Shown here one piece after another: positions 1,982-36,659 of a DNA stretch of 39,717 nt. The translations under genes were made by a program, and so were the position numbers. The stretch covers positions 1-39,717 of IMG/VR virus record IMGVR_UViG_3300048670_000777; one strand, 5' to 3'. The notes under the pieces are model-generated. The model was not told where the DNA came from, did no database searches, and was given only the letters and a program-made list of their open reading frames with translations. The stretch comes from a virus (Duplodnaviria > Caudoviricetes). Positions within the stretch are counted from its first letter, which is position 1. Every line of letters starts with the position of its first letter.

Positions 1982-1985
1982 TTTA

Positions 1986-1993
1986 TATAAATA
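1986..1993 (+). promoter_or_regulatory. T4-type late promoter TATAAATA
   Basis: Exact gp55 consensus in the intergenic gap, 16 nt before the ATG at 2010. Confidence 0.7.
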
Positions 1994-2009
1994 AAATATA
2001 AGGTTAAAA

Positions 2010-4616
2010 ATGGAATATAATATTTATAAAATAAAAGAAATATTGTGCATAGAAGGAAGCTATAAAACTGGTTCATCTAGCGCAGCAATATCTAGTTCAT
2101 CATCAAGCAGTTCCAGCACCTCAGTATCCAGTTCATCTAGTAGATCTAGTTCATCATCAAATAGTTCTAGTTCATCTAGTAGATCTAGTTCATCATCAAG
2201 TAGTTCTAGTTCATCTAGTAGATCTAGTTCGTCTAGTTCATCATCAAGTAGTTCTAGTTCATCTAGTAGATCTAGTTCGTCTAGTTCATCATCAAGTAGT
2301 TCTGCAATTTGTTTGGCGTGTTCGACAACAGATTTTACTACAGCATCCTTTCCAACAACATCACAACCAAATGGTGTAAACTTTACATTATTATACTGTG
2401 GTACAACAACAACAAAATACACATATAGAGTAGATGCAACACAACCATCGAATCCAATATTATTGAGATATCAAAATGGTTGTACAGAAAAAATATTTGC
2501 ACTACAAAACTATGAATTATATGATAAATTTACTATAATTTTTGAAGGATTTTCTGCAGATGATAAAATTGATTTTTATAATTATAATTTTATTACAAAT
2601 AATTATACACAAATACAACAAAATGTTATAGGAAATAATCAAACAATAGAAATATTGATCGATAACACAACAAGATCTCTTCCAATAAATGCTTTTTATA
2701 TAAACAAAAAACCCCAAGGAACAGATACTCGACCAGTTTATAGGTGCACCGAATGGTCTTTACAAGTAAAACCAAATTCTTGTATATTAAAAACAAGCAG
2801 TTCTAGTTCATCCAGTAGTTCTAATTCATCTAGTAGTTCATCGTCAACTAGTTCATCAAGTAGTAGTTCATCAAGTAGAAATTCATCAAGTTCTGTTAGT
2901 TTTTATAATTGCGATGTTGATAAAGCAATGCAATCTGCAAATTGCCCTACACCCGGTGATAATTGTTTAAATAATGGCTGCTATGCAAGATCCGGAAATG
3001 GTGATGGATTATCATCAATATATTCAGACACTTTGGGTGGAAATGTGGAATATTTTTATCATTATGTTAATAGAGTGTATCCAATAATATTATCAGCAAC
3101 GATAAAACAATTAACTCAAAATATTGGTGCATGCAAAGCTAGAATTAGATTGGGTCAATATAATAGTGAAGGACAAGTACTACTAAAAAATTTAAAGGCT
3201 TGGGAAATATCAGAAGCCCCCGTAAGTGCATCGCAGACATGTTTGCCTCTTGCTTCATGTGACGGTTCTCAACAAATATGTTATGATAAATTGACAACAT
3301 CTATGAGCGGCGTATCACAGATTGATCTTTCATACGTAATAGAAGAAGTCGATAGTTGTGGCTCTAGCGGCAGCAATACAAATTTTAAATTTATATTTAC
3401 TGTTGAATATATAAATTGTTCAGAAGGAAATTCTGATGACTCTACCGATATCCCTACACAATATGTTTTTGAAGAAGGTGGTATGACGATATGCTATACT
3501 CCTAGTAGTGGAGGATTATCAAGTGTGTGTTCATTTACAGCCACTTCAAATATGGGTGGAACAGTTGGGGCTTGGGCATTTTTTAATACAAAATGTTTTA
3601 ATGGAAATACAATATGTGGAGACCAAATACAAAATTGTGGAAATTTTATATTACAAATACAACCATCTAATCCAAATTGGTGTACTCAATTTTATAATAC
3701 CATAGAAAGTTGTCTCCCGCTGGATTGTGGCGCAGAAGAAGTATTTGGTTGTGTTGATTCAACATTAGACGCAACTTGTGACTCCCCAAATCCATTATGC
3801 AAAACATATTTAAAAAATCATTATTGGAAACCATTACAGCATATTCATAATACAAGTAGATCTGGTCAAGATGGTACTGGTTTATGGCCGGGATATGTTA
3901 CTTCAGCAGCATGCAATGGAATGACTTTATATTTTGATTGGGAACGATTTTTAACAATAGGCCAACATACAGGAAGTATTGCTAGTTTATTAAATACGGG
4001 ATCAAGAGGTGATAAAAATAATATTAATTGGCTTTGGGAGAACGATAAAATTTTAAATAATGGTGTAGGTGGCTATAGGCCAAGTCGAGCTTTATATGAT
4101 TATTTAAGAAATTCGAGACAATATCATGAAACGGATCCTGATGTTTATAAATTAAATTCTAATTGCAGTAATTATTCTTGTACTCCAGGATCGTTTGATG
4201 CATTAAGTGGAACTTTTTATAATTTTTGGAAAGATCCTAATTTTAATCTAACATATAGAATACAATTTGATGTTCAATATACAGTAACTGTTCCAACTTA
4301 TATAAACACATTATCTTTAGAAACCTTCCCTTTGACATTTAATTCACTAGGAGAAAGAGAATTATCGGGTGTATCTTATGCAAATATTGAAACAAATGAT
4401 GATTATAAATCAAATCTTTTTGTCTCTTCTAGTGGTGGGGAATGTGATTGGGATTTTAATTGGAATGGATTTACACCATTTTATAAGAAAAGAACTATAA
4501 ATTCTGTTTGTGATATGGGTTTACTTATATTTCCAATAAATAATAAAATTCCTTGGCTATGGCAATATCAAACATTTAGAATAAATCCAGATTCTATAAA
4601 AATTATTGAAATTTAA
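2010..4616 (+). CDS. Cys-rich multidomain protein with poly-Ser linkers, function unknown (late, likely structural)
   Basis: 868-aa ORF with about 33 Cys by hand count, two long Ser tracts and an upstream late promoter. Confidence 0.75.
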   Translation: MEYNIYKIKEILCIEGSYKTGSSSAAISSSSSSSSSTSVSSSSSRSSSSSNSSSSSSRSSSSSSSSSSSSRSSSSSSSSSSSSSSSRSSSSSSSSSSSAICLACSTTDFTTASFPTTSQPNGVNFTLLYCGTTTTKYTYRVDATQPSNPILLRYQNGCTEKIFALQNYELYDKFTIIFEGFSADDKIDFYNYNFITNNYTQIQQNVIGNNQTIEILIDNTTRSLPINAFYINKKPQGTDTRPVYRCTEWSLQVKPNSCILKTSSSSSSSSSNSSSSSSSTSSSSSSSSSRNSSSSVSFYNCDVDKAMQSANCPTPGDNCLNNGCYARSGNGDGLSSIYSDTLGGNVEYFYHYVNRVYPIILSATIKQLTQNIGACKARIRLGQYNSEGQVLLKNLKAWEISEAPVSASQTCLPLASCDGSQQICYDKLTTSMSGVSQIDLSYVIEEVDSCGSSGSNTNFKFIFTVEYINCSEGNSDDSTDIPTQYVFEEGGMTICYTPSSGGLSSVCSFTATSNMGGTVGAWAFFNTKCFNGNTICGDQIQNCGNFILQIQPSNPNWCTQFYNTIESCLPLDCGAEEVFGCVDSTLDATCDSPNPLCKTYLKNHYWKPLQHIHNTSRSGQDGTGLWPGYVTSAACNGMTLYFDWERFLTIGQHTGSIASLLNTGSRGDKNNINWLWENDKILNNGVGGYRPSRALYDYLRNSRQYHETDPDVYKLNSNCSNYSCTPGSFDALSGTFYNFWKDPNFNLTYRIQFDVQYTVTVPTYINTLSLETFPLTFNSLGERELSGVSYANIETNDDYKSNLFVSSSGGECDWDFNWNGFTPFYKKRTINSVCDMGLLIFPINNKIPWLWQYQTFRINPDSIKIIEI
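2130..2303 (+). repeat. In-frame tandem repeat (39+39+48+48 bp) encoding SSSSRSSSSS... linker
   Basis: Unit agttcatctagtagatctagttcatcatcaa(a/g)tagttct twice, then two 48-bp versions carrying an extra tcgtctagt. Confidence 0.9.
2796..2894 (+). repeat. Second poly-Ser low-complexity linker
   Basis: About 33 codons, almost all AGY/TCN. Confidence 0.8.
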
Positions 4617-21740: not shown

Positions 21741-22148
21741 ATGGAACAGAATAATTTGTTGGTTGAGTCATTATTAGAAGTAACTTTACAAAAAGAAGAT
21801 GATTTCTTAAAAATAAAAGAAACACTTACCCGTATAGGTGTATCATCTAAAAAAGAAAAAAAACTTTACCAATCTTGTCATATTTTACATAAGAAGGGTA
21901 AATATTACATAGTTCATTTTAAAGAGCTATTTTTACTTGATGGTCTAGAATCTGATATTAGTGAAACTGATATTGGTCGTAGAAATACAGTAGCAAAATT
22001 ATTAGAAGAGTGGGGGCTACTTTCAGTAGTAGATAAAGAAAAAATGAATGCTATTATTACACCATTAAATCAGATCAAGATTCTTCCTCATAAGGAAAAG
22101 AATGAATGGCAATTGGTACCTAAGTACCACATAGGAAAGAAATTTTAA
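21741..22148 (+). CDS. regA: Translational repressor RegA
   Basis: DDFLKIKETLTRIG, LYQSCHILHK, YYIVHFKELF, LVPKYHIG; ATG 21741 preferred over 21708. Confidence 0.97.
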   Translation: MEQNNLLVESLLEVTLQKEDDFLKIKETLTRIGVSSKKEKKLYQSCHILHKKGKYYIVHFKELFLLDGLESDISETDIGRRNTVAKLLEEWGLLSVVDKEKMNAIITPLNQIKILPHKEKNEWQLVPKYHIGKKF

Positions 22149-22537
22149 TGACTGGCATTTACGACATAACAACAGAGGCCAATTCTGATTTTAAGTTGGA
22201 GATGCAGTATACCAACTATAATGATGTTGCTATTAATTTAACTAATAAAAAATTAGTATTTTCCGTCAAAAGAACATATTTAAATATTCAAGATGATGTT
22301 TTTAGTATTCATAGTGATGTGAATGATCAGGTTGAAGGTACTTTAGAATACCCTAATTCGGATAATAGCTATGGTAGCATAGAAATTATCGCAATTTCTG
22401 GGGAAATTGTTATAAATATTAATAAAGAAGTTATGCAATTATTGGAGCCGGGACAATATTTTTATGCACTTCGTTTGATTAGTAGCAATTTTTCAGAAAA
22501 TATCTTAAAGGGCAAATTTGAAGTACAGGCATTCTGA
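22148..22537 (+). CDS. Beta-sandwich virion adaptor (LtfC/p132-like fibre-attachment protein)
   Basis: GIYDITTE...FKLEMQY...INLT...FSVK...LEPGQYFY...ILKGKFEV pattern; first gene of the fibre cassette. Confidence 0.55.
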   Translation: MTGIYDITTEANSDFKLEMQYTNYNDVAINLTNKKLVFSVKRTYLNIQDDVFSIHSDVNDQVEGTLEYPNSDNSYGSIEIIAISGEIVININKEVMQLLEPGQYFYALRLISSNFSENILKGKFEVQAF

Positions 22538-22661: not shown

Positions 22662-23630
22662 ATGGCAACAATAGGAAGAAATTCTGGAATAACATATTTT
22701 GGCAACAACGCTGCTGCCAGAAATATTTCTGTTGGAGCAAGAGGTCCCAAGGGAGATAAGGGAGATACTGGCGTTGGAGTTTCTTCTGCAAATGTCGATA
22801 CAAATGGTGAATTACTTTTAGGATTGACAAATAATACAATTTTAAATGCAGGTTCAATAGTTGCTCCATCAGAAGTCTGGTCAAAAGATGATGTTATACC
22901 CACTGGCATTGGTGGTATAAGTGCAGGAACAGTTGGTCAAACTCTTGATGGATTGACTCCAATACAAATATTAGAAAAATTATTATATCCATACCAAACT
23001 CTTTCTTTTGCATCTTTTAGCATGGGATTACCAATTTCTTCCACAGTGGAAGTTGGTACAACCTGTGCCGCAGGAAGTTATTCTGCATCTTGGTCATTGA
23101 ATAATTACTCTAATTTAACTGCAAATAGTATATCAATTTTACAAAATTCAACAACTTTAGCAAGTGGATTGAACACAAGCCCAACATCAATAACACATTC
23201 GCAATACCAATATAATACCCCAACTCAATTAACATTTACAATATCTGCTGGGCAAAAAGAAGGTTCAAACGTAACTTCTACTTCATCATATTCTTGGAAG
23301 AAAAAAATATGGTATGGAAAATCAAATTTAACTTTCTTGTCAGCATATTCTGATTTTTCTAGTTTTTCTTCTATTTTTACACAAGGTCTTACGAGCATTA
23401 GTTCTGCAAACTATACCTTTAGTGCAACAACTGGGGATGATCAATATTTGTATATAATTATTCCAGATACTGGTTCTTATGGCACCTTTACTGAAAGTGG
23501 ATTTGATTATCCATTTGAAAACGCCCAAACCATAACATTTACAAATAGTTTAGGTGTTTCTTTAACATATAAATATTACAGATCTACAAATGCAACAGAA
23601 TCATCAGTAACAGTATATGCTGGAGTTTAA
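22662..23630 (+). CDS. Fibre-associated protein with short collagen-like segment and Ig-like domains
   Basis: GAR-GPK-GDK-GDT-GVG triplets, GGISAGT...ILEKLLYPY, Ser/Thr-rich beta regions. Confidence 0.65.
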   Translation: MATIGRNSGITYFGNNAAARNISVGARGPKGDKGDTGVGVSSANVDTNGELLLGLTNNTILNAGSIVAPSEVWSKDDVIPTGIGGISAGTVGQTLDGLTPIQILEKLLYPYQTLSFASFSMGLPISSTVEVGTTCAAGSYSASWSLNNYSNLTANSISILQNSTTLASGLNTSPTSITHSQYQYNTPTQLTFTISAGQKEGSNVTSTSSYSWKKKIWYGKSNLTFLSAYSDFSSFSSIFTQGLTSISSANYTFSATTGDDQYLYIIIPDTGSYGTFTESGFDYPFENAQTITFTNSLGVSLTYKYYRSTNATESSVTVYAGV

Positions 23631-23632
23631 TT

Positions 23633-23935
23633 ATGGCAAAAATACCAGGAACGGTAGGATTGGGTGGAAAAATTGCCCCAAAAGACGAAAATGACAAATA
23701 TGCAGTAACTGACCCAAAATATGGCCTTGGTGGTCTAAGAACTGTAGCAAATTTAACTGAACGAAATAGCATACCTTATCCCAGAAGAGAGGTTGGAATG
23801 CTTGTTTATGTGACTTCTGAATCTGGATATTTTAAAATGTTGAGTGTTGGGGTAGATGGGTCGAATACTGATTCTTCAAATTGGGAATTATTAAATACTG
23901 GAACCGTTGGGGACATAGATGCTGGAACTTATTAA
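23633..23935 (+). CDS. Small fibre adaptor ending in the IDAGTY plug motif
   Basis: GGLRTV...ERN.I...RREVGMLVYV module; C-terminal DIDAGTY. Confidence 0.6.
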   Translation: MAKIPGTVGLGGKIAPKDENDKYAVTDPKYGLGGLRTVANLTERNSIPYPRREVGMLVYVTSESGYFKMLSVGVDGSNTDSSNWELLNTGTVGDIDAGTY

Positions 23936-23937
23936 AT

Positions 23938-23945
23938 TATAAATA
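23938..23945 (+). promoter_or_regulatory. T4-type late promoter TATAAATA
   Basis: Exact consensus upstream of the 1475-aa fibre gene. Confidence 0.75.
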
Positions 23946-23983
23946 TAGGAAAGATTATAAACTATTCATAGGGGAAATGTAAA

Positions 23984-26900
23984 ATGGCAACACCAAAAAT
24001 TAGAATAAAAAGAGGTATAACAGCACCAACATCGACAAATTTGCCATCTTCTGGCGAATTAGCAATTGATACAACTGCTAAGAGATTTTATATTCAAGCA
24101 GATCCTGCTGGCACAACTGCTCCTTTATGGATGGGTGCAGAAATTGAAAATAGTGTTACTAATTGGAATACCACAACTAAACTTGCAACACAAAGTGCAA
24201 TTGACACTAGATTTATGCCCAAAACTGGTGGTACATTTACTGGTTCTATAAGTGGAACATCATTAGTTATGAGTAGTACAATTTCATGCACTTCTTTAAC
24301 CAGTACACTTGGATCTTTAGTTTTAACAGAAACAGGTGGTGGTGGTAATACAATTACAATTCAATCCCCAAGTGATGTCGCGGCCAATGTAACATATACT
24401 TTACCCGATGTTCCTAGTGCAAATGGCAAAATTTTAAGTTCAACTACTAGTGGTACCTTATCTTGGGTTTCTGCTGCTAATGGTATAACAATTACAGAAG
24501 CAACAACTCCATCATCAGGAACAAAACTTTACAGTTTATTATTAACTGATACACAAGGGAGTAATATAACTGAGATATATGCAGACGGTTCTCCGGGACT
24601 TTTGCCAACTAATGGCCCTCTTCAATACAATAAAACTACAGGAGCACTTATAGTCAATGGTAATATAGTTGTAAATGGTCCAGCCGCATCAGTAACTCTG
24701 ACACCAACTAGAGGAAATGCAACAACAAATTTGATATCAGATGGTGACACCACATTTACATTTGCTGGAACAGTAGATTTGAGTAGTTTTGTTATTGGTA
24801 TGGAATTTGGAATAAATGATTCATATAATGCACCTTCTGGTATTACAGTAACCATAAACAATGGTACATTAATTACAGCTGTTAATAATACTAGTAAAAC
24901 TATTACAATTAGTTCGGGCATTCTTGTAAAAACTACATCAGGTAATACTTCAACAACATTAGCAGTATTATCAAATCAAGCAGATTCCTTATTTTCAGTT
25001 GCAACTGGAATTATTGATATAGGACCAAATAGTGTAGGAAATACAACTGGTAATTTATATAATACAAATGTACCAACTATTAATATTGGTAGAACAGATG
25101 CTAGCACAATCAATATAGGTAAAGCTGATTCAACTGTAAATATCGGTACAACAGGAGGAAATTCTACTTTAACGATTAATGGTAGTAGTACTGCAACATT
25201 AACAACAAACGCTGCAACATTTAATCTTGCAAATACAAATGCAACAGCAGTAAATATTGGTGGTGCTGCAGCTACATTGACACTAGGTGGTGCAGCATCA
25301 GCTACAACAAATATCAATGTTAATCCGAGTGCAACAACAACAAATATTGCAACAGGTGCCAATGCTTCAGGCACTAAAACAATTAACATTGGTACAGGCG
25401 CTAGCGGTGGTACTTCTACAATAACAATAGGCACAGCTAGCGGTGGTTCAAATAGCATAACAATAAATGGTCTGATTACAAATACAGCGGGCAACAATCC
25501 AACTGCCAATACATTAGTAACTAAAACTTACGTCGATGGTGTTGCAGCAGCCGGATTAACTAGTAAAACTGCAGTTAGAGTTGCAACAACAACATCCGGA
25601 ACATTATCAAGTAGTTTTGAAAATGGAGATACTATTGATGGTGTAACTTTAGCAACTAATGATAGAATTTTAATTAAAGATCAAGCTACTGCTACAGAAA
25701 ATGGTATTTATGTAGTTAAGGCATCTGGTGCTCCAGATCGTGCAACTGATGCAAATGAGGCATCAGAACTCACAAAGGGTACATATGTATTTGTTACCGC
25801 CGGAACTTCTAATGCTGGTAAAGGATTTATTTTAAGAACAGGTGTAGTTACATTAGGAACAGATGCTTTGAATTGGGATCAATTTACAAGTAGCACACTT
25901 TTTACATTTAGTGATGGATTGACAAATACTTCAGGAACAATAACAGTAAATCCTGCAAGCAATGGTGGGTTAACTGTAGGTAGTGGTGGAGTTTCAATAT
26001 CATCATCATTTGCTGGAAAAGGATTAAGTTTAAATAGTGGTGTATTGACTGTTGATGGTCATACTACTGTAAAAGTGGCTACAACAACATCCGGAACATT
26101 ATCAACTAGTTTTAGAAATGCAGAGTCTATTGATGGTGTAACTTTAGCAACTAATGATAGAATTTTAATTAAAAATCAAAGTAATCCTTCAGAAAATGGT
26201 ATTTATTTTGTAAATGCATCTGGATCCCCAACCAGAGCAACTGATGCAGATACTTCTGCAGAATTATTAAGCCTAAGAAGAATATATGTTACAAGTGGAT
26301 CAGCAAACACTGGAAAAGTGTTTAAATTAACTAATACTGCAGCAATAACTGTCGGAACAACACAAATTAATTATGTTGAAGATTCTGCAACTGGTGGTTC
26401 TTCTTATACACCTGAACAATATTTTGTAATAGGTGCTGGATTAGATAGAACATCTACTGCAGCAGCAAAAAGTTATACTTTAAACGGAACATGGACACAA
26501 AATACCGCTCTTGCTGCTAATGGCACATTTACTATAACTTTTGGAAGTACTGGTAATGTAATTTTGGATTCAATTTATCCCGGAATGGCAATAACAAAAT
26601 TAGGTACAACATTCACCAGCAATTTAATAATAGATTCAATAAGTAGAAATGCAAGTCCAAGAACAATTACTGTCAGAAATATAGGAACAGCTGCATCAGT
26701 AAGTATAACTGCCGCCTCAACAAATACAGATTTTATTGTAAACGGAGACACCTCAACGGGAAGTGATTCTTATGACACATCAAACCATAAAGGTATTTTA
26801 GTATACAAAAATAAAGATTATAGTACATGGAGCGTTTTAGGATATAATAAATCTTCTGATCATTGGAGTATATTTAATCAAGGAAGCAACACAGAATATC

Positions 26901-28411
26901 CAATAGTTACTAGAAATGGTGTTGAGACTTTAACAAATAAAACCTTATCCAGTGCAGGATTAACATACACTGCTTATAATAGTTCAACTTATATCAATGA
27001 TGCTTCATTACCAGCGGCAGTCTCTGGCGCAGTGCAAAATGCATATATGTGGGATCCATTTGTTAGAACTACCTATTCAGCTAGTGGTGATAGAGCTCCT
27101 GGATATATATGGTCTAAAGATCATGATTTAGGTTATGTTCAAAAATGGATGTCAACAGATCCTGTTGCGTATGCTGCAAATGCCCAAACAGTACCATCAT
27201 CAGGAACAAATGATGACGTAATTACATTAAATTCTCCAAATAATAATGAATTAAGAACAGGCCATGCCGTAAGAGCATTTGGTGCAGGCACAGGAATTAC
27301 AAATGGTATTACAAATGGTAGTTTATATTATATAATTAAAGTTGGTCCATCTTCAATAAAAATAGCATCAAGTTATGCAGACGCTATTGCAGGAATTGCT
27401 ATTAATGTTAGTGGAAATGCAATAGACACCGGATCAAATTATTTAAGATTTTATACTTATATTAATACAACAAAACTAGGCAGTGATGATGTTGTTGGTG
27501 GTGGTGCATATATTAAATTAGCAAATACAGAATTTTTTGGTAAATATGATACTGTATTTGGTGATTCTTATGCTCTAACTGAAACCACAACAACAAATAT
27601 AGGAAACACTGGCGATTCAATTGGTTCAACTTATTCTTATCTAATAACATCTATCAATGATGGAGTATCGACAGCACCAGATAACGAAGCGTTAAATGTA
27701 GATTTAGGTCCAGTTTCCAGTATAGCATTAGATGGTTCATCCACTGCAACAATAACATTTTCAACTGCACCAAGTGTAACAACAAATGGAAAGTTAACAG
27801 CAAATAGAAGTTATGTAATGTTGTGTGCAGTTAATACTGGAAATTCCACTGTAAATACATTAATGAATTTTTATCATAAAGTTACAGCATATACTGCTGG
27901 ATCAACCTCTGTCACTGTTGAATTAAGAAGAGCCGCCACAGGTTTAACTGGAAACTATACAGCAAACGTTGGTTTTGGTGTAAAAAATTACGAAGTAAAA
28001 ATTATTATGGCGGCGGGTGCTCCTACCTATAGCGTTGGAGATTCTATTGTTTTTAGTAGTTCAGCTTCTTCCACATCTGATCCTTCACGTGTCGTAATTG
28101 GTGATTATGCTGGAACACATGGATCAACTCGCACGGATAGTAGTTCTTGGACAACTAGTAATGCTTCTACAACAACTGCCAGAGTAACAACAGTATTTAC
28201 TACAGCAAATTCAAAAGTATTTTCTTTTAGATGCCCATATCCACTTACCACTACTAGCGGCGGTACATTATTAAATACAGTACCAATATTTGGTGCTGCT
28301 TCTATATCCGCTAATCTTAGGTTATCGTTGATTACTGCACAAGAAGCGTTAACTTCTTATACAGGAAGAAGAGTTCTTCTCAATACTCTAATTGATTGTG
28401 GTTCTTATTGA
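23984..28411 (+). CDS. Long tail-fibre-like protein (segment 1)
   Basis: gp37-like N-terminus IRIKRG...GELAID, TINIG beta repeats, duplicated VRVATT...IDGVTLATNDRILIK domain, C-terminal IDCGSY. Confidence 0.8.
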   Translation: MATPKIRIKRGITAPTSTNLPSSGELAIDTTAKRFYIQADPAGTTAPLWMGAEIENSVTNWNTTTKLATQSAIDTRFMPKTGGTFTGSISGTSLVMSSTISCTSLTSTLGSLVLTETGGGGNTITIQSPSDVAANVTYTLPDVPSANGKILSSTTSGTLSWVSAANGITITEATTPSSGTKLYSLLLTDTQGSNITEIYADGSPGLLPTNGPLQYNKTTGALIVNGNIVVNGPAASVTLTPTRGNATTNLISDGDTTFTFAGTVDLSSFVIGMEFGINDSYNAPSGITVTINNGTLITAVNNTSKTITISSGILVKTTSGNTSTTLAVLSNQADSLFSVATGIIDIGPNSVGNTTGNLYNTNVPTINIGRTDASTINIGKADSTVNIGTTGGNSTLTINGSSTATLTTNAATFNLANTNATAVNIGGAAATLTLGGAASATTNINVNPSATTTNIATGANASGTKTINIGTGASGGTSTITIGTASGGSNSITINGLITNTAGNNPTANTLVTKTYVDGVAAAGLTSKTAVRVATTTSGTLSSSFENGDTIDGVTLATNDRILIKDQATATENGIYVVKASGAPDRATDANEASELTKGTYVFVTAGTSNAGKGFILRTGVVTLGTDALNWDQFTSSTLFTFSDGLTNTSGTITVNPASNGGLTVGSGGVSISSSFAGKGLSLNSGVLTVDGHTTVKVATTTSGTLSTSFRNAESIDGVTLATNDRILIKNQSNPSENGIYFVNASGSPTRATDADTSAELLSLRRIYVTSGSANTGKVFKLTNTAAITVGTTQINYVEDSATGGSSYTPEQYFVIGAGLDRTSTAAAKSYTLNGTWTQNTALAANGTFTITFGSTGNVILDSIYPGMAITKLGTTFTSNLIIDSISRNASPRTITVRNIGTAASVSITAASTNTDFIVNGDTSTGSDSYDTSNHKGILVYKNKDYSTWSVLGYNKSSDHWSIFNQGSNTEYPIVTRNGVETLTNKTLSSAGLTYTAYNSSTYINDASLPAAVSGAVQNAYMWDPFVRTTYSASGDRAPGYIWSKDHDLGYVQKWMSTDPVAYAANAQTVPSSGTNDDVITLNSPNNNELRTGHAVRAFGAGTGITNGITNGSLYYIIKVGPSSIKIASSYADAIAGIAINVSGNAIDTGSNYLRFYTYINTTKLGSDDVVGGGAYIKLANTEFFGKYDTVFGDSYALTETTTTNIGNTGDSIGSTYSYLITSINDGVSTAPDNEALNVDLGPVSSIALDGSSTATITFSTAPSVTTNGKLTANRSYVMLCAVNTGNSTVNTLMNFYHKVTAYTAGSTSVTVELRRAATGLTGNYTANVGFGVKNYEVKIIMAAGAPTYSVGDSIVFSSSASSTSDPSRVVIGDYAGTHGSTRTDSSSWTTSNASTTTARVTTVFTTANSKVFSFRCPYPLTTTSGGTLLNTVPIFGAASISANLRLSLITAQEALTSYTGRRVLLNTLIDCGSY
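25586..26173 (+). repeat. Internal direct repeat at a 495-bp offset
   Basis: Identical 25 bp at 25586-25610 and 26081-26105; identical 47 bp at 25632-25678 and 26127-26173. Confidence 0.9.
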
Positions 28412-28444
28412 TCTGAGATATATATAATATAAAGGAGATTTATT

Positions 28445-28708
28445 ATGAGTGAAACAAAAAACTATAATGAGACAGTAATTATACCATTCTTACAAAGAAA
28501 AGTACAAGAATTAACAAATCAAAATTTAGTTCTTGAAGCAAATCTTTTAATAGAAAGGCAGAAAGCAGCAGATGTTCAACAAGAATTAACTAATTTACAA
28601 AACGAATTAGTTGAATCTGGTTTAGCAGAAGAAGAGCCATCAACTATTCCAAAGAAGAAAAGAAAAGTAAAAGCGGAGCCAGAAGTATTAGACGCTAGCA
28701 CATATTGA
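28445..28708 (+). CDS. Small coiled-coil protein ending in a plug-like LDASTY
   Basis: Strong AAGGAG RBS; heptad pattern LQRKVQELTNQNLVLEANL...LTNLQNEL; TATATATA at 28419-28426 upstream. Confidence 0.8.
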   Translation: MSETKNYNETVIIPFLQRKVQELTNQNLVLEANLLIERQKAADVQQELTNLQNELVESGLAEEEPSTIPKKKRKVKAEPEVLDASTY

Positions 28709-28726
28709 AAGGTGTAATTTTTTGTT

Positions 28727-31480
28727 ATGGCTACGCCTGTACTGAAAATAAAAAGAAAACAATCAGGAACTGGTGCCCCCAGTTCATTGCAACCTGGAGA
28801 ATTAGCGGCTGATATAACTTCTCAAATTCTTTATATTGGAAATTCATTAGGGACTCCTATTGCAATAGGAACAGGATCTGTTGCTTCTGGGGGAGTTTCT
28901 AGTGTAGCTCTAAGTACTCCAGATATTTTTTCTGTTTCTGGTTCACCAATATCATCTGGGCAATCTGGAACACTAAGTTTTTCTTTAGCAAATCAAAGCC
29001 AAAATACATTTTTTGCTGGCCCAATTAATTCAACTGGAACGCCTTCTTTTCGAAAAATTCATCCAGACGATTTTACCACTGGTGGTACTAATGGTAAATA
29101 TTTAACTTCGGATGGAGCAAACTTTTTTTGGTCCACTCCTCCAGGAGGATCTGGTGGTTCTCCGGCAGGAAGTAATGGACAAATACAAATTGCAGCATCT
29201 TCTGGATTTTCTTCATTAAATAATTTTCAAATTTTAAATAATTCTTCAGTATTTTCTACACCAAATACAGCAAATTTAATTACAAATTCTGCAGTACAAA
29301 ATACAACCTACAGTAGAATTAAATTTTCATTTAATAATATTATTTCTAATAATGATATTGTTAATATTAAATTTGACGGAACATCAAGTGCAAATTATGT
29401 TGTAAGAAATATAACAAACGGTTCATTTAAATTATATGCATTACCCACAGGTTCTGGTGGAACAATAAATACCACTGCTAATATATTCAGTAGTCCTATA
29501 ACATCAAAATCTAAAGTAGAAATAATACCATATACAAATTCATCTTCTCCTATATTTGTACAAGGAACTTTAAAAACTTCATCAACAGCATCTACAATCA
29601 CATTATCGTCATCACCATCTTCACTAGGGTTAACAGTTGGAATGAGAGTTACTAGTGGTATTGCACCAATAAAAATAAGAGGAATAATTTTAACTACAAC
29701 AGCATCTAGTTCATTTACAACAGCAGATAGTCTTTTGTCTGGTTATCTTGATTGTTTTGTTGATACGGATAATACTAGTATTTCTACATTAGGAACAACA
29801 CCAACAAATGATACAAAATCAATTTCTGGTCTTTTAGCAAATAACACATATATTAGTGCAGTAAATACATCAACTAAAACTATTACATTAAGTACTAATA
29901 TTTTAGGAACATTTGTTAATACAGACGGTAATCCAGATAAAATAAACGATACAAAAGCAGTAGTTAATATTGTGTTTTATCCTAAAGGGTGTATGCGTCC
30001 TGATACATTTATTACCCATATAGACGAAACAAATAAAGTAATAACTTTAAACCAAAAACAACATAATACAACAGATACTAGTGGTAATGCTTTTACTTTT
30101 TATTTTAGCAATTCAGAAAAACAAATTTTTTCATTTGGTACTCCGCTGTTAAATTCTACTGCAGATTTAATTTCTAATGAAAGTATTTCTTTAATAAAGC
30201 AATTAAATGATGGTGGTAGAAATTTAGAACAAAAAATATTATTTAAATCTCCAGAAAATTATAGTATAAGTATATCTAATACATTAGCAAATAACACCAC
30301 TTCATTAACATTATCAATAAAACAAAATTTAGCAGAAATTAATGTTGGAGATATTGTGTTGTATGCTACAACTAGTGATGGTTCTTCGGTTTATGTTCCG
30401 GGTACTTTATGTTATGTATCAGCAATAAATTATAATACGGGTGTGTTAACTCTTAATACTGGAATATCAAGTATTCCTTCAGGTATTTCAAATTCTTTAT
30501 TAACATTAAGATCCAGCAGAACAATAAAAAGTGTAATAGAACACAGAAGTTATCCATATTCTCAATATATGGCAAGTAAAAGATACAATTCTACTAATTC
30601 TATAAAAGAAGCAGTTGACTTTGGGTATTCTCAAGGAAAATTGTCATATGGAGCAAATTCTTTTGAACAATATTTATTTGATGTTTCTCAAAATTCTAGT
30701 ACAAATAATTTAGGTTCAATAAATGACATGGGATTATATATATGCAGTGATACATCAATAAAAATTGGATTATCTACAATAAGTAGAGGTGCAAATTCTG
30801 AAGGTTCTTTTATAAAAGAACCAATAGACTCTGTTCTTTCGCATATTTCAATTGAACCTACAGTTTATAATAATGATGAGACTATAAATGGCATTTTTTT
30901 TAAAAATGTTCCTGTTATTACTTCAACTAATGTTTATGCTAATTCTAATTATATTTACGTTTTAGGGTGTAGATCAGACACACCAAGAATGAATGATGGG
31001 TTTAATTATTCAGTTTGGTATAGATTGGCAACAACTGCAGTTTCAACATTAGTGGCAGGAAATGGTACAAATAAAGATGAAATTGTAAATGAAATTACTG
31101 GTGAATCAGAAATAGTTTTTTCACTTTCTGATGAAGTTCCAGTCAATACATCTCTAACAGTACCTTTATTAAAAAGCCCAGAAACAACAGATCTCAGCAT
31201 AACAACCACTTCTTCTAATTCAAATATTAATATTACAATTCCAGAAAGCAACACAGATGTTGCTCTTTCATCTGGTAGCATTTATATTACTTCAGGATTA
31301 GACGCAGGCGATGTATATGTGCAATCTGCAGAAGATATTTATTTAACTTCTCAAACAACAAGGGTTTCTGGTAATTTAATTGTTGATGGTTATATCCAAG
31401 TTGCAAATGGAATAATTGGAGATGCCACCGATGGAGAAGAAGAACTTTCTGGTCTATATTTGGATGGAGGTTCTTTCTGA
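28727..31480 (+). CDS. Tail-fibre-like protein (segment 2)
   Basis: N-terminus LKIKRK...PGELAAD...LYIG, PAGSNGQIQ fibre motif, C-terminal LDGGSF. Confidence 0.8.
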   Translation: MATPVLKIKRKQSGTGAPSSLQPGELAADITSQILYIGNSLGTPIAIGTGSVASGGVSSVALSTPDIFSVSGSPISSGQSGTLSFSLANQSQNTFFAGPINSTGTPSFRKIHPDDFTTGGTNGKYLTSDGANFFWSTPPGGSGGSPAGSNGQIQIAASSGFSSLNNFQILNNSSVFSTPNTANLITNSAVQNTTYSRIKFSFNNIISNNDIVNIKFDGTSSANYVVRNITNGSFKLYALPTGSGGTINTTANIFSSPITSKSKVEIIPYTNSSSPIFVQGTLKTSSTASTITLSSSPSSLGLTVGMRVTSGIAPIKIRGIILTTTASSSFTTADSLLSGYLDCFVDTDNTSISTLGTTPTNDTKSISGLLANNTYISAVNTSTKTITLSTNILGTFVNTDGNPDKINDTKAVVNIVFYPKGCMRPDTFITHIDETNKVITLNQKQHNTTDTSGNAFTFYFSNSEKQIFSFGTPLLNSTADLISNESISLIKQLNDGGRNLEQKILFKSPENYSISISNTLANNTTSLTLSIKQNLAEINVGDIVLYATTSDGSSVYVPGTLCYVSAINYNTGVLTLNTGISSIPSGISNSLLTLRSSRTIKSVIEHRSYPYSQYMASKRYNSTNSIKEAVDFGYSQGKLSYGANSFEQYLFDVSQNSSTNNLGSINDMGLYICSDTSIKIGLSTISRGANSEGSFIKEPIDSVLSHISIEPTVYNNDETINGIFFKNVPVITSTNVYANSNYIYVLGCRSDTPRMNDGFNYSVWYRLATTAVSTLVAGNGTNKDEIVNEITGESEIVFSLSDEVPVNTSLTVPLLKSPETTDLSITTTSSNSNINITIPESNTDVALSSGSIYITSGLDAGDVYVQSAEDIYLTSQTTRVSGNLIVDGYIQVANGIIGDATDGEEELSGLYLDGGSF

Positions 31481-31523
31481 ACACATATATACTCTAGAAG
31501 TGTGCAGCAAAGAAATATAAAAA

Positions 31524-33977
31524 ATGTCAACAATAAAAATAAAAAGATCACAAACAGCAGCAGCGCAACCAGCATCACTTGCTTACGGTGAACTTGCTAT
31601 TAATATTACAGATAAAAAAATATTTATTGGTAACAGTTCCGGTGCGACTACTCTTTTAATTGATGGAAATGCAATAGGTGGTTCAACATCAACCGAAACA
31701 ATTCAAGACGCTGCTGCTTCTCTGTTCACTACAGGAACACATACAGGAATTTCTATATCTTATCCAGATACAAACAATGCAATTAATTTAACAAATACTG
31801 GTGTTCTTTCGTTTAACACAAGAACTGGTGCAGTATCTTTAACTTCATCTGATGTCACAACTGCTCTTGGATTTACTCCAGTTAACTTTCTTGGCTATGA
31901 CTACGAGATTCATGTTAGTCAAGTAGATGGGAATGATACTACTGGTAACGGTGATTTACTTACTCCTGTTGCTTCTATTACTAAGGCACTGACTTTAGTA
32001 GGTTCACAGCGTAAAACCATCATTGTTCACCCAGGAACTTACACTGAAAGCCCTTCAATAACTGTTCAGTACACGACCATAACTGGTCCTGGTCTTATTG
32101 GTGGAAACATCGTAATTTCTGGAACTGTAAGCACAAACACAGGTTGCACTATTTCAGGTATAAAGATGACCAACCTGACTGTGACTACACCTAGCGGTGC
32201 AGGAAATGTAAACATCCTTAACTGTGAAGTTTCTGGAACTTTCACAAAAAGCAGTAATGCTGACTACACCGTTCTTCGTTTGTGTGACCTCACCTCTGCA
32301 AGTATTACTGGAGCAGGTTTAGTAGCTATCTTCGGTGGTAATCCAAACTTTATAACAGTTAATAATGCTAGTGCAAATGTAATCGTTAAAAGTGCGGTTA
32401 CTGTTTCACCAGTTCTAACTGCTGGAGCACTAAGTATTGTAGATTGCGTTGTGGGTGCTGCAGTAACCAACGCTGTTACATCGGCTGCCTCAAGTGTGAT
32501 TACCTTAGCCAATAGCCAGTTTTTAACATCAAACCTAGGTGGTGTTGCCCCAGTTGTTTTGAACGGCTTTTACTCAATACTCAACTGTGTATACGATAAG
32601 CCAAACTCGACTCTAGTGGCTACATCAGGAACTGGTGGAACTACTAACTCTATTGATTACTTCCAATACATCAACGCCGATAAGTTTATTACTCAAGGTG
32701 GAACTTCTGCTCAGTTTGTGAAGGGTGACGGTTCTCTTGACTCCATAAATGCACTCACAATAGGAACTGGTTTATCTGGAAGTTCTTATAATGGATCCAC
32801 TGGTGTTACCATTGCTATAGATTCTACTGTAGCAACCTTAACTGGAAATCAAACATTAACTAACAAGACATTAACCAGTCCAACAATAAACAGTCCAACA
32901 ATAAGTAATCTTTATCTATCTGATGGACTTATTCTTGTTGAAGGTACAACAAACGATTCAAATGAAATGTCTCTTGTTGTTGGAACATTAACTGCTGATA
33001 GAACAATTACATTCCCAAATGCAACTGGTACAGTAATCACAACTGGCAATTTAACTTCTATTACATCGACAGGTACTATTGCGTCTGGTACATGGAACGG
33101 AACAGCAATTGGAACAGTTTATGGTGGTACTGGATTAACTTCATATACTCTTGGTGATCTAATTTATAGTTCTGCGTCAAATACATTATCTAAGTTATCC
33201 GGAAATACTACAAGTACAAAGAAGTTTTTAGCACAAACTGGTACTGGTACTGTTTCGGCAGCACCATCTTGGACTACATTGACCAGCACTGATGTTGGTC
33301 TTGGAAATGTAGAAAACACAGCGTTATCTACTTGGGCAGGATCCTCAAATATTACTACTGTTGGTAATTTGGTAGGATTAACTTTAAATACTGGGTTTAT
33401 TACTATAAACACAGGTGAAACAGAAACACTTTATATTAATAATACTGGAAATACTACAACATACATAGGAGATGTAGATGGTTCTGGAAACGGAACATAT
33501 ATTGTTATTGACGATGCTCTTGGAACTATTACACTAAATTCAGTAGGTGGAATAGACAATAGTGGTGCTGCTTTTAACTCTAGTGTAACAGGACCATCGT
33601 TCACAGATACCTATTCAGTAATTCGAACATATCGAACTACCACATCGTCTACTACAGACAGTCAAACTATTGCTACGGTTAGTGGTGTTTATTCAGTCGC
33701 AGATGGTATGAATTATTCCGCATTTGAAGTCACCGTGTCAGCATGGGATACGGTAGCATTAAAGGGAGAAATGCTCAAGATGTTGGTGATGCAGGACGGA
33801 AGCAATACTGTAAACACGCAATATGGATACATTCGTACAGGAGCAACTAGCATTGTGTCTTCGTATACTACAGGCTTAACAGGTGTATCAAATAAAAGTT
33901 TGCAAATTAAAGCAACACCACTTTCCGCAAACTCTACAAATTTCACAGTAACAGTTCGTTATCATATAGGAGTATAA
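31524..33977 (+). CDS. Tail-fibre-like protein (segment 3) with a putative beta-helix module
   Basis: N-terminus IKIKRS...LAYGELAIN...IFIG; HVSQVDGNDTTGNG...PGTYTE; TLTNKTL; GTWNGT...GGTG; no C-terminal plug. Confidence 0.8.
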   Translation: MSTIKIKRSQTAAAQPASLAYGELAINITDKKIFIGNSSGATTLLIDGNAIGGSTSTETIQDAAASLFTTGTHTGISISYPDTNNAINLTNTGVLSFNTRTGAVSLTSSDVTTALGFTPVNFLGYDYEIHVSQVDGNDTTGNGDLLTPVASITKALTLVGSQRKTIIVHPGTYTESPSITVQYTTITGPGLIGGNIVISGTVSTNTGCTISGIKMTNLTVTTPSGAGNVNILNCEVSGTFTKSSNADYTVLRLCDLTSASITGAGLVAIFGGNPNFITVNNASANVIVKSAVTVSPVLTAGALSIVDCVVGAAVTNAVTSAASSVITLANSQFLTSNLGGVAPVVLNGFYSILNCVYDKPNSTLVATSGTGGTTNSIDYFQYINADKFITQGGTSAQFVKGDGSLDSINALTIGTGLSGSSYNGSTGVTIAIDSTVATLTGNQTLTNKTLTSPTINSPTISNLYLSDGLILVEGTTNDSNEMSLVVGTLTADRTITFPNATGTVITTGNLTSITSTGTIASGTWNGTAIGTVYGGTGLTSYTLGDLIYSSASNTLSKLSGNTTSTKKFLAQTGTGTVSAAPSWTTLTSTDVGLGNVENTALSTWAGSSNITTVGNLVGLTLNTGFITINTGETETLYINNTGNTTTYIGDVDGSGNGTYIVIDDALGTITLNSVGGIDNSGAAFNSSVTGPSFTDTYSVIRTYRTTTSSTTDSQTIATVSGVYSVADGMNYSAFEVTVSAWDTVALKGEMLKMLVMQDGSNTVNTQYGYIRTGATSIVSSYTTGLTGVSNKSLQIKATPLSANSTNFTVTVRYHIGV

Positions 33978-33990
33978 CTGAGAATATAAC

Positions 33991-34659
33991 ATGGCAGATA
34001 CTATATTACCATTCAATGCAATTTCCGGATTAGAATCTACTGATTCTTCTGGTTTAATATCCAAATTACAAGTTTTTAGACCAATGACAGGTGGAACAGG
34101 AAATAATTTAAAATATTTACATTGTGATTACTGTACCGCAGGAACCGTTTCTGCTTCTGCTGCAACAAATACTCTTGTATATTACCTACCATTTACTATT
34201 GGTGGATCTGGAAATACTTCAGTAAAGGCAGCAGTTCAAAGTGCTGCTTCCAGTCCCGGAGCAAGTCCGGGAACAATAACAGCAAAAATATATGGTGCAT
34301 CATCAACAACAGGAAATCCATCTGGAAGTTCTCTTTATGATTTAGGAACAATAACACTAACAAATACAACAAGTGCTGCCTTTATTGGTGATACAACAGT
34401 TTCATTACCTCCCGGACACTATTGGATTGGGTATAAATTTAGTGCTACACCAATATTAAGAAGACTACAAATAGAACAAGGTGCTTCATACAGAACTGTT
34501 GGTGGAGAAGTTCAATCTGGAACAAATTATATTTTTTCGTATTTTAGTGAAACTGTATCATCTGGTTCCACTGCACCTTCCACAGTTGGAACAGTATCAG
34601 AAACTAATAGTACATCTTTAAACACAGTAGTTCCAGCTATATATTTACAGGTACAATAA
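33991..34659 (+). CDS. Putative distal fibre / receptor-binding protein
   Basis: Ser/Thr/Gly-rich beta domain (YYLPF...AKIYG...LPPGHYWIG) following the last fibre gene. Confidence 0.5.
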   Translation: MADTILPFNAISGLESTDSSGLISKLQVFRPMTGGTGNNLKYLHCDYCTAGTVSASAATNTLVYYLPFTIGGSGNTSVKAAVQSAASSPGASPGTITAKIYGASSTTGNPSGSSLYDLGTITLTNTTSAAFIGDTTVSLPPGHYWIGYKFSATPILRRLQIEQGASYRTVGGEVQSGTNYIFSYFSETVSSGSTAPSTVGTVSETNSTSLNTVVPAIYLQVQ

Positions 34660-35020: not shown

Positions 35021-35542
35021 ATGTTAAAAATCTACAAGTTATACCCTGAAGTAAAGACACCAAAGAAAGCAACTGCACAGGCTGCGTGTTTCGATTTACA
35101 TGCTTATCTTGGTCAACCTCTCTATGAAGTAAAAGGTTATTGTGCAAATAATAGAGAGTGTGTAGCAAGAATTACAGAATCAAAAGAAGAAAATCGTTAT
35201 ATTGCTATTGATCCCGGTCAAAGACTTTTAGTTCCGACTGGGATTATTTTTAATATTCCTTCTGGTTATTCTGTGCGTATTCATGCGAGATCTGGTCTAT
35301 CACTAAAGCAAGGTCTTGTTATGGCAAATGCACAAGGCATTATTGATTCTGATTATGTAGAAGAATCTAGAATTATGTTGCACAATATCTCAAATGATAA
35401 ATTATATATTTACAACGGAGATCGTATAGCACAAGCAGAAATGATTCGTTGTGAATTGTATGATATTGCAGAAACAGCAGAAAGACCAGCACAAAAAACA
35501 GACAGAAGCGGTGGGTTTGGTTCCACAGGAGTTAGTATTTGA
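35021..35542 (+). CDS. dut: Trimeric dUTPase
   Basis: All five motifs present: ACFDL, RSGL, GIIDSDY, GDRIAQ, RSGGFGSTG. Confidence 0.96.
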   Translation: MLKIYKLYPEVKTPKKATAQAACFDLHAYLGQPLYEVKGYCANNRECVARITESKEENRYIAIDPGQRLLVPTGIIFNIPSGYSVRIHARSGLSLKQGLVMANAQGIIDSDYVEESRIMLHNISNDKLYIYNGDRIAQAEMIRCELYDIAETAERPAQKTDRSGGFGSTGVSI

Positions 35543-36327
35543 AATTTTATATGTCATATTGGTCTGGAGGATATTATAAAAATATCAACCAATATCTCAT
35601 AGATTTTCATAAACTTTCTGTATTTTTAATAAAAAAATATTATGGTGAGTGTCATTTAATAACTGATACTTATAGTAAAGATTTTTTTAAAGATGTCCAA
35701 TTTACTTCTATTAATACTGATCTTGATGTTTTAAATGGAGTCAAAACACATAATTGGGCATTAGGAAAAATATTTACTTATAAATTATTAAGTGAAAAAA
35801 ATATTCCATTTGTACATATAGATTATGATGTATTTTTATGGAATCCTTTACCTCAAAAACTATTAGATTCTCAAGTCTTTGTTCAAAATATTGAACAAAA
35901 TGTTTATGAAACTTATAATTTAACAGTATTGGATAAACTTTATTTTAATAAACATTTAATAGATAAAATTTCTACTAAAGATACTGCATATAATATGGGT
36001 ATATTTGGTGGAAATAATTTAGAGTTTATAAAAAAATATGCAAATGCAGCAATACAATTCACTCTAGATGAAGATAATGTTTATTGTTACAATGAAATGA
36101 TAAAAAAATATAGTTATGCAGTTGCCTGTCTATGTGAGCAATATTATTTAAATATATGTTCTAAAAAATGGAATATACCGATTACTTGTTTACTAAATAA
36201 AACAGATGAAAATAAATTGGAAGAAGAAGCAAATCAAATTGGCTATACTCATATAAACTATGGGAAAGATGAGCCAAAAGTAAAAGAAAATTTATATTTA
36301 AGACTTAAAGAATTGGGTATTAATTAA
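35539..36327 (+). CDS. DUF6734-like protein, putative GT-A fold nucleotide-sugar transferase
   Basis: LITD, WALGKIFTY, FVHIDYDVFLW (DxD), NMGIFGG, EQYYL; TTG start with AGGAG RBS. Confidence 0.65.
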   Translation: MKFYMSYWSGGYYKNINQYLIDFHKLSVFLIKKYYGECHLITDTYSKDFFKDVQFTSINTDLDVLNGVKTHNWALGKIFTYKLLSEKNIPFVHIDYDVFLWNPLPQKLLDSQVFVQNIEQNVYETYNLTVLDKLYFNKHLIDKISTKDTAYNMGIFGGNNLEFIKKYANAAIQFTLDEDNVYCYNEMIKKYSYAVACLCEQYYLNICSKKWNIPITCLLNKTDENKLEEEANQIGYTHINYGKDEPKVKENLYLRLKELGIN

Positions 36328-36338
36328 AGGATTATATT

Positions 36339-36659
36339 ATGACAAAAGAAGAATTGTTAGAAAATCACAAAAAGCTTTGTGAAACTGCAAGAGCACTTAT
36401 GGAAAAGAAAAATGCAGATTATGCTGGTCGTTCTGGAACTGAACCCTTCGCTAACTTTACAAGAGTAGAGGCAATGGGTATTTGTTCAACAGAGAGAGGA
36501 ATGCTTGTTAGACTTACTGATAAGATGAGCAGATTATCCTCGTTCATGGAATCTGGCAAATTAGAAGTTGCAAATGAATCTTTTGAGGATACAATAGTGG
36601 ATGTAATCAATTATATGATATTATTACATTCATATCTCAAAGATAAACAAAATGCATAA
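36339..36659 (+). CDS. Nucleotide-modification-associated domain 1 (DUF1599 / all-alpha NTP-PPase-like) protein
   Basis: KKNADY, PFANF, VRLTDKMSRL, ESFEDTIVDVINY. Confidence 0.75.
   Translation: MTKEELLENHKKLCETARALMEKKNADYAGRSGTEPFANFTRVEAMGICSTERGMLVRLTDKMSRLSSFMESGKLEVANESFEDTIVDVINYMILLHSYLKDKQNA

Follow-up and report, generated by a model that had tools for sequence, protein, structure and literature searches.

The window analysed here is the whole of a 39,717-nucleotide stretch of viral DNA (Duplodnaviria; Caudoviricetes; IMG/VR record IMGVR_UViG_3300048670_000777, a linear virus record of 39.7 kb that is ~22% complete), and the subject is its block of fibre genes, whose products carry two recurrent terminal elements: a short C-terminal plug and an N-terminal socket. 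Judged from the sequences, with a probability of about 0.62, the fibre proteins form a single fibre of serially joined trimers, each linked by its tail to the head of the next in the order of the genes, and a small coiled-coil protein encoded among them is likely an assembly helper. Serial joints between trimers are preferred because they explain the polarity of the two elements, the adjacency of the genes that carry them and the precedent of phage T4.

The core of the block consists of a 100-amino-acid (aa) adaptor (23633..23935) and three fibre segments of 1475 aa (23984..28411), 917 aa (28727..31480) and 817 aa (31524..33977), all encoded, like the other parts of the block, on the + strand. 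An earlier note on this DNA gave the coordinates of these four open reading frames (ORFs) correctly, and three terminal peptides lie exactly where it placed them: IDAGTY (23915-23935), IDCGSY (28391-28411) and LDGGSF (31460-31480), which end the 100-, 1475- and 917-aa proteins and fit the pattern [IL]-D-x-G-[ST]-[FY] before the stop codon. The N-terminal module that it had seen in the three fibre proteins is likewise real. These sockets (~23984-24150, ~28727-28895 and ~31524-31690) are 40-42% identical over 55-58 aa, retrieve one another within the record at E values of 2e-9 and 6e-4, and have an I-K-R...GELA core in common. The 817-aa terminal segment, as claimed, has a socket and no plug at its end. 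The proposed balance of three plugs for three sockets fails, given that an overlooked 87-aa ORF (28445..28708) ends in a fourth plug-like peptide, LDASTY (28688-28708), so that the window holds four plugs and three sockets. The 100-aa protein, described as a plug only, proves to have a conserved domain in residues ~1-88.

Profile comparisons establish the socket as homologous to the N-termini of T4-type gp37 proteins. A search with the N-terminus of the 817-aa protein brought up 1,021 phage records at E<=1 (typical rows at 1e-4), most of them T4-type gp37 starts, and the same N-terminus matches phrog_19966 and phrog_1699, both 'long tail fiber protein distal subunit', at E values of about 1e-6. 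The gp37 start of the T4-like phage PP01, MATLKQIQFKRS...EGELAIN, scores an E value of 8e-9 with a hidden Markov model (HMM) derived from the window. The gp36 of PP01 ends in ...SVQDFGYY, and a D-F-G-x-[FY] terminus was found in all five T4-type phages examined; the T4 ends given in the earlier note are therefore right for PP01. In T4 itself, gp36 is reported to bind gp37 at its N-terminal region (PMC3004832). At the level of protein order, T4 thus already provides this type of joint. A motif-level description and the serial reuse of the joint were not found in the literature searched, which excludes most subscription journals, and the consulted part of PMC9004378 holds nothing on these fibres.

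Across genomes, the succession of a plug gene and a socket gene, which is seen in many phages of aquatic origin, is not due to chance. IDGGTF before a stop is estimated to occur in ~2,200 viral stretches, extrapolated from 4 of 64 parts scanned, versus 9 for the scrambled IGDGTF; none of these nine is followed by a socket, and a chance origin of the plug motif was thereby ruled out. The gene after the plug was scored at 119 distinct IDGGTF sites that have 200 nt or more of following sequence (three with less were dropped). In 80 of the 119, an HMM trained on other loci alone identified this gene as a socket, whereas an extended HMM did so for 32 of 386 genes not preceded by a plug gene. The loci are not independent genomes; in these counts only near-identical sequences were merged. 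Among the misses, seven have no downstream gene called and about ten have a coiled-coil gene there. A socket also comes next after ISGGTF in 75/107 and after INGGTF in 68/104 cases. Starting from sockets, and leaving out six without an upstream ORF, a plug in the broad sense lies directly upstream in 50 of 74 (31 by the strict pattern) versus 21 of 751 other genes. Co-occurrence, which had been set beforehand as a test, was thus found in both directions. The residues that precede the hexapeptide are not strongly conserved in 82 distinct examples, which makes the plug a portable tag. In sum, the earlier claim of a repeated T4-type joint stands as to socket homology, the gp36-like plug and pairing across genomes, and falls as to the 3:3 count.

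The socket of ~50 aa is predicted to be a small trimeric β-prism like the N-termini of Mtd and HylP1. A model built from 135 sequences has a predicted local distance difference test (pLDDT) score of 90, and its best matches, weak in score and obtained with a monomer, are of one fold class: the collagen XV trimerisation domain (Z 3.5, root-mean-square deviation (rmsd) 4.0, 48 residues aligned), Mtd residues 5-56 (Z 3.2), the N-terminus of E2 ORF18 (Z 3.2) and HylP1 residues 7-62 (Z 3.0). Foldseek gave no match at E<=0.001 for this model or that of the adaptor, and a sequence search of the PDB with a single socket gave nothing significant. The Mtd_N family (PF18454) matches the window sockets at 16.6-21.6 bits versus a curated cut-off of 26.3 (the 1475-aa socket, below the cut-off, has an E value of 0.008); it is found at E<=0.01 in 37 of the 135 sockets, and related sockets reach 9e-17.

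A different account of these domains would make the N-terminal module a device for trimerisation or mounting and the tag a signal for folding or chaperone recognition, with each fibre attached on its own to baseplate, neck or head. That purely trimerising domains (collagen XV/XVIII) head the fold matches, that a non-fibre coiled coil also bears the tag and that some plug genes have no socket nearby would all fit, as would an internal domain of the 1475-aa protein that matches phrog_2647, a 'head decoration' family. Independent attachment is nonetheless improbable, given that it leaves unexplained why a plug gene directly precedes a socket gene, why terminal segments lack the tag, and why the tag is found on T4-type gp36, a binding partner of the gp37 N-terminal region. 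The last genes of the cassette are plug-less in the window, in locus L005 and in the cultured phage Melnitz, and the middle genes there carry both ends. As for where the fibre is mounted, the clues are that the 1475-aa protein matches a tail-fibre family (phrog_11518, 'tail fiber protein') as well as the head-decoration family, and that the Melnitz cassette precedes neck genes. The 1475-aa protein has two copies of the domain that matches phrog_2647 (residues ~505-680 and ~690-810), which also matches several families of virion proteins.

Plug and socket subtypes show a suggestive covariation. A basic residue occupies the arginine column of the socket after 75 of 85 plugs with Asp, versus 31 of 137 with Ser or Asn, and the trend is seen inside two broad lineages (3/3 vs 13/98, and 72/82 vs 18/39). 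A contact between the plug Asp and the socket Arg is a lead from these alignments. One large lineage (L229-L350) has ISGGTF plugs preceding sockets with Y-[YHFN] in place of K-R.

The fourth plug-like end belongs to a coiled coil with a basic linker, of a phrog_26572-like family, whose gene lies between donor and acceptor in one joint of the window, from the 1475- to the 917-aa segment. Among its close homologs, 49 of 57 end in [ILVMF]-D-[GACS]-x-[TSA]-[FY]. An iterated HMM search over 3,313 small ORFs yielded 19 members of the family in the loci analysed, all of which directly follow a plug-ending gene; a socket gene comes next after 11 of them, and the complete plug survives in 6. A profile search returned 506 clusters at 50% identity. 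In the wider family, 56 of 148 distant homologs (the short members among the best 150 profile matches) end in two polar or acidic residues and F or Y, versus 33 of 3,050 in the background. Comparison with Pfam gave generic coiled-coil families only, among the 25 families listed of 84; a distant homolog had no match among annotated phages, and a metagenome scan added no contigs to the two already in the sample. The size and position of the protein suggest a gp57A-like helper with a plug mimic, and a role in fibre assembly is likely by this analogy. In such a role, which is a weaker part of the proposal, its degenerate plug would hold or trimerise free sockets and then be displaced by the true plug.

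Alternatively, the coiled coil might be a structural spacer of the virion and the true partner of the 917-aa socket, which would place the 1475-aa protein and the 917/817-aa pair in different fibres. Its gene does stand directly before a 917-aa-type socket gene in the window, L004, L005 and L220, and both the plug kept by most close homologs and the socket gene that comes next in 11 of the 19 members accord with such a role. The spacer is very unlikely even so: the coiled coil has no socket of its own, the tail of the wide family decays to the polar/acidic-[FY] form and is a full plug in just 15 of 148, the constant neighbour (19/19) is the upstream plug gene and not the downstream socket, and the plug of the 1475-aa protein would be left without a partner.

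Several results weigh against serial joining. An adjacent socket is lacking at 39 to 43 of the 119 plug sites, a count that varies with HMM and rule (80 or 86 hits), and 24 of the 74 sockets lack an upstream plug. At L009, L010 and L012, one plug gene is accompanied by several socket-only genes, an arrangement compatible with alternative tips. The T4-like phages RB43 and Aeh1 have duplicated g37 genes and still a single gp37 trimer per fibre, by the account in PMC3157838. Bbp9 of phage BPP-1, encoded by the gene preceding mtd, has no clear plug. The fold matches of the socket (Z 3.0-3.5) are weak and equally compatible with a plain trimerisation domain, and no solved chain was matched in a PDB sequence search with the 135-sequence socket profile. 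Within lineages, other columns equal the arginine column in mutual information and arginine is not at the top, and the socket tree yields just two supported independent Asp/Arg pairs, with which significance is unreachable. The full plug is kept in only 15 of the 148 distant helper homologs, and homology of the helper to gp57A was not shown by hhalign (E 0.061 over 25 columns).

The earlier note had the chain start at the 100-aa protein; the start more likely lies further upstream, in the genes for proteins of 129 and 322 aa. The 129-aa immunoglobulin (Ig)-like protein (22148..22537) matches phrog_1084 (E 3.7e-11) and is BppU_N-like; its feature look-alike cluster, at a score of 0.95, has BppU_N in 16% of members. 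It is likely the anchor at the start of the fibre cassette. Among its distinct homologs, the next gene ends in a plug in 45 of 56, and one of the next two does in 53 of 56, versus a plug-ending gene among the two upstream genes in 1 of 56; these loci had been picked by plug or socket, and only the order is informative. The usual cassette consists of the anchor, a plug-only starter of 70-110 aa and a fibre with socket and plug, and by comparison the block in the window is an expanded form of this conserved cassette: Ig-like anchor, starter with plug, socket-and-plug fibre, coiled coil and further segments.

In the window, the starter slot is filled by two genes. The 322-aa starter (22662..23630) has a short collagen-like stretch and then a conserved C-terminal region, with only weak PHROG matches, to tail-fibre families. 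An end like its C-terminus precedes homologs of the 100-aa domain in L220-L226, unrelated phages included. The pair is also present in unrelated phages, with the 100-aa domain at the head of long proteins there, and the 322- and 100-aa gene pair (22662-23935) therefore likely represents a second, different type of joint, with the 322-aa protein as donor. The conserved domain of the adaptor is elsewhere fused to other proteins, and most full-length examples among its 20 homologs end in a plug, D-C-G ends also being used. It is predicted to be a small trimerisation β-prism, from a model with a pLDDT of 73 whose best fold match, weak and modelled as a monomer, is the collagen XV trimerisation domain (Z 4.8, rmsd 2.8, 50 residues aligned). 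Profile comparison of adaptor domain and socket was not significant (E 0.096), and common ancestry of the two heads is unsupported by profiles. Homologs of the adaptor's head domain occur in the cultured Bacteroides phages DAC/SJC03 and in Pseudomonas phage Lu11.

At the other end of the cassette, the 222-aa protein (33991..34659) is an uncertain member without a Pfam or PHROG match. Its nearest named look-alike cluster (score 0.86) has Mtd_N in 44% of members, which is a lead only, and the protein is possibly a tip or a receptor-binding cap.

A two-joint version of the cassette occurs in cultured Melnitz (MZ577098, genes 184-187), directly upstream of neck genes, with an anchor of 111 aa, a starter of 90 aa (LNGGTF), a protein of 648 aa with a socket and the end IDGGTYS, and a socket-only protein of 517 aa. 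The locus of Methylophilales phage Melnitz-3 (L478:8363-13562) has anchor, starter, socket-and-plug and socket-only genes and no coiled-coil gene between them. Burkholderia phage BcepSaruman (L473:7872-10119) encodes a socket-like protein that ends in LDEGTYSGT, followed by a second socket-like protein, and a third socket-like start lies at 1303.

Relatives whose clamp loaders are 66-82% identical to that of the window vary widely in their long segments: 1475, 917 and 817 aa in the window; 1683 and 907 aa, followed by the contig end, in L220; 642, 116, 279 and 299 aa in L005; and 677, 171 aa and more in L004. The 917-aa protein is 50% identical to the 907-aa protein of L220. The first segment of the window shares 44% of its first 79 residues with the third segment of L005, and the 1475-aa body has little in common with the first segments of relatives. 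The 40-aa C-terminal module of the 917-aa protein (~31346-31477) is found again on 131-136-aa homologs of the adaptor, at 27-47% identity. From this variation among relatives and the recurrence of the module on adaptor homologs, it is concluded that fibre segments have been exchanged and added in evolution. Four relatives keep a plug variant in each slot even where the fibre body has been replaced: D-[AS]-G-T-Y in the adaptor, D-C-G-x-Y in the first fibre, D-A-S-T-Y in the helper and D-G-G-[ST]-[FY] in later segments. As each slot keeps its own variant, the plugs point to ordered joints rather than free mixing. The skipping, reordering or self-polymerisation of segments within one virion that the earlier note envisaged is unsupported, combinatorial change being seen only between genomes.

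The same joint could nonetheless be real and promiscuous or branched, with every socket able to accept every plug. Virions would then be mixed, with segments skipped, middle segments repeated or alternative tips on the 100-aa adaptor, and the coiled coil would cap or branch the fibre. Such mixing would be favoured by the core that all three sockets have in common, by the presence of both plug and socket on the two long middle proteins, and by separate, presumably late, promoter motifs for the adaptor and 1475-aa genes. Loci with one plug and many sockets exist; at L009, L010 and L012-L018, there are one or two plug genes, and socket-only genes outnumber free plugs, a balance that suggests interchangeable tips. 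Duplicated g37 genes supply alternative tips in RB43 and Aeh1 (PMC3157838), and a self-chaining trimer, linked by another joint, is described for the neck fibre of cyanophage A-1(L) (PMC10966104). The plug variants kept by slot fit ordered specificity instead, and shared descent could also explain them; the D-C-G ends on adaptor homologs elsewhere weaken this objection to mixing. On balance promiscuity is considered unlikely.

If the serial joints are real, the path of the fibre would run from the 129-aa anchor to the 322-aa starter, the 100-aa adaptor and then the 1475-, 917- and 817-aa segments. At each joint, the three plug peptides of the upstream trimer would insert into the downstream socket trimer, and the plug Asp may pair with the arginine of the socket I-K-R. 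The three long segments would together span ~170-190 nm, by the residue-to-length ratio of the T4 half-fibre (PMC3004832).

Gene ends could then reveal in what order the products of uncharacterised phage fibre clusters assemble, and the unsolved gp36-gp37 junction of T4 would reduce to a six-residue peptide and a 50-residue domain. The joint would also account for the swapping of very differently sized fibre segments between related phages. The plug-tailed coiled coil offers a concrete, testable account of client recognition by a small fibre chaperone. With the cassette present in cultured Melnitz, a test system is at hand. A more speculative extension, thought doubtful as a whole, is a general fibre kit of aquatic phages that can be read from sequence, in which an Ig-like anchor is combined with the six-residue plug, co-evolving plug and socket subtypes set the order, and a coiled coil with a decoy plug gates the joints. 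As the middle segments bear both ends, one genome could, under this proposal, yield fibres of variable length or make-up.

The source virus is a T4-like phage by its gene content. Pfam matches in the window include a T4-like set of prohead protease, scaffold, major capsid protein gp23, UvsY and UvsW, along with a gp46/47-like pair, RNase H and a family B polymerase. The fibre block of nine genes lies between a regA-like and a dUTPase-like gene, both so named from sequence features. The motif TATAAATA, presumably the T4-type late promoter, has nine + strand copies in the window, eight of which lie no more than 70 nt before the start of a gene; these precede the major capsid gene, the 100-aa gene (23568..23575) and the 1475-aa gene (23938..23945), among others. 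Upstream of the head genes, at 917-4616, are two large ORFs of 354 and 868 aa without a Pfam match, the latter of which contains a poly-serine stretch and is preceded by a TATAAATA motif. A DUF6734 protein and a DUF1599 nucleotide-modification-associated protein, possibly encoded by DNA modification genes, lie at 35539-36659, in the interval from the dUTPase-like gene to that of the DNA polymerase.

The closest known system is the gp36-gp37 joint of T4, which has a homologous N-terminal domain, a gp36 that ends in D-F-G-x-[FY] and a donor gene directly before the acceptor gene (PMC3004832). The T4 fibre has one such joint, whereas three in series are proposed here. Unlike the long tail fibre of T4, the cassette has no gp34, gp35 or gp36 family match among its proteins in Pfam and PHROG; given that the record is only ~22% complete, such homologs may lie elsewhere. 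The cassette also differs in that it begins with an Ig-like protein, is flanked by regA and dUTPase, and includes a gene for a tagged coiled coil. Mtd_N, of BPP-1 Mtd (PF18454), and the N-terminus of HylP1, from a streptococcal phage, resemble the sockets through weak profile and fold matches; the window sockets are under the Pfam cut-off for Mtd_N, and the BPP-1 gene before mtd is without a clear plug.

The neck fibre of cyanophage A-1(L), gp82-(gp81)14-gp80, resembles the proposed fibre in that its trimers, each the product of a separate gene, are described as linked head to tail; anchor, middle and terminal subunits are distinguished, and their genes lie apart from other structural genes. 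It differs in that its globular beads are joined by N-terminal β-hairpins and one subunit is repeated ~14 times (PMC10966104). Comparison of the termini of its three proteins (gp82 was recognised by length, and gp81 and gp80 by their positions) revealed neither a plug nor a GELA start. The chain-like fibre of A1002 was rejected as a model, its dimers reportedly sitting on a rope protein (PMC13730344). T4 gp57A is a small oligomeric helper of ~80 aa, which the 87-aa protein resembles in size and coiled-coil character (PMC3004832); unlike it, gp57A is without an aromatic C-terminal tag and is encoded far from the fibre genes. The lock-and-key of the gp37 C-terminus and the gp38 adhesin is a different joint, at the fibre tip and with unrelated motifs, but there too matched terminal subtypes of neighbouring fibre genes are interpreted as a docking code (PMC3157838).

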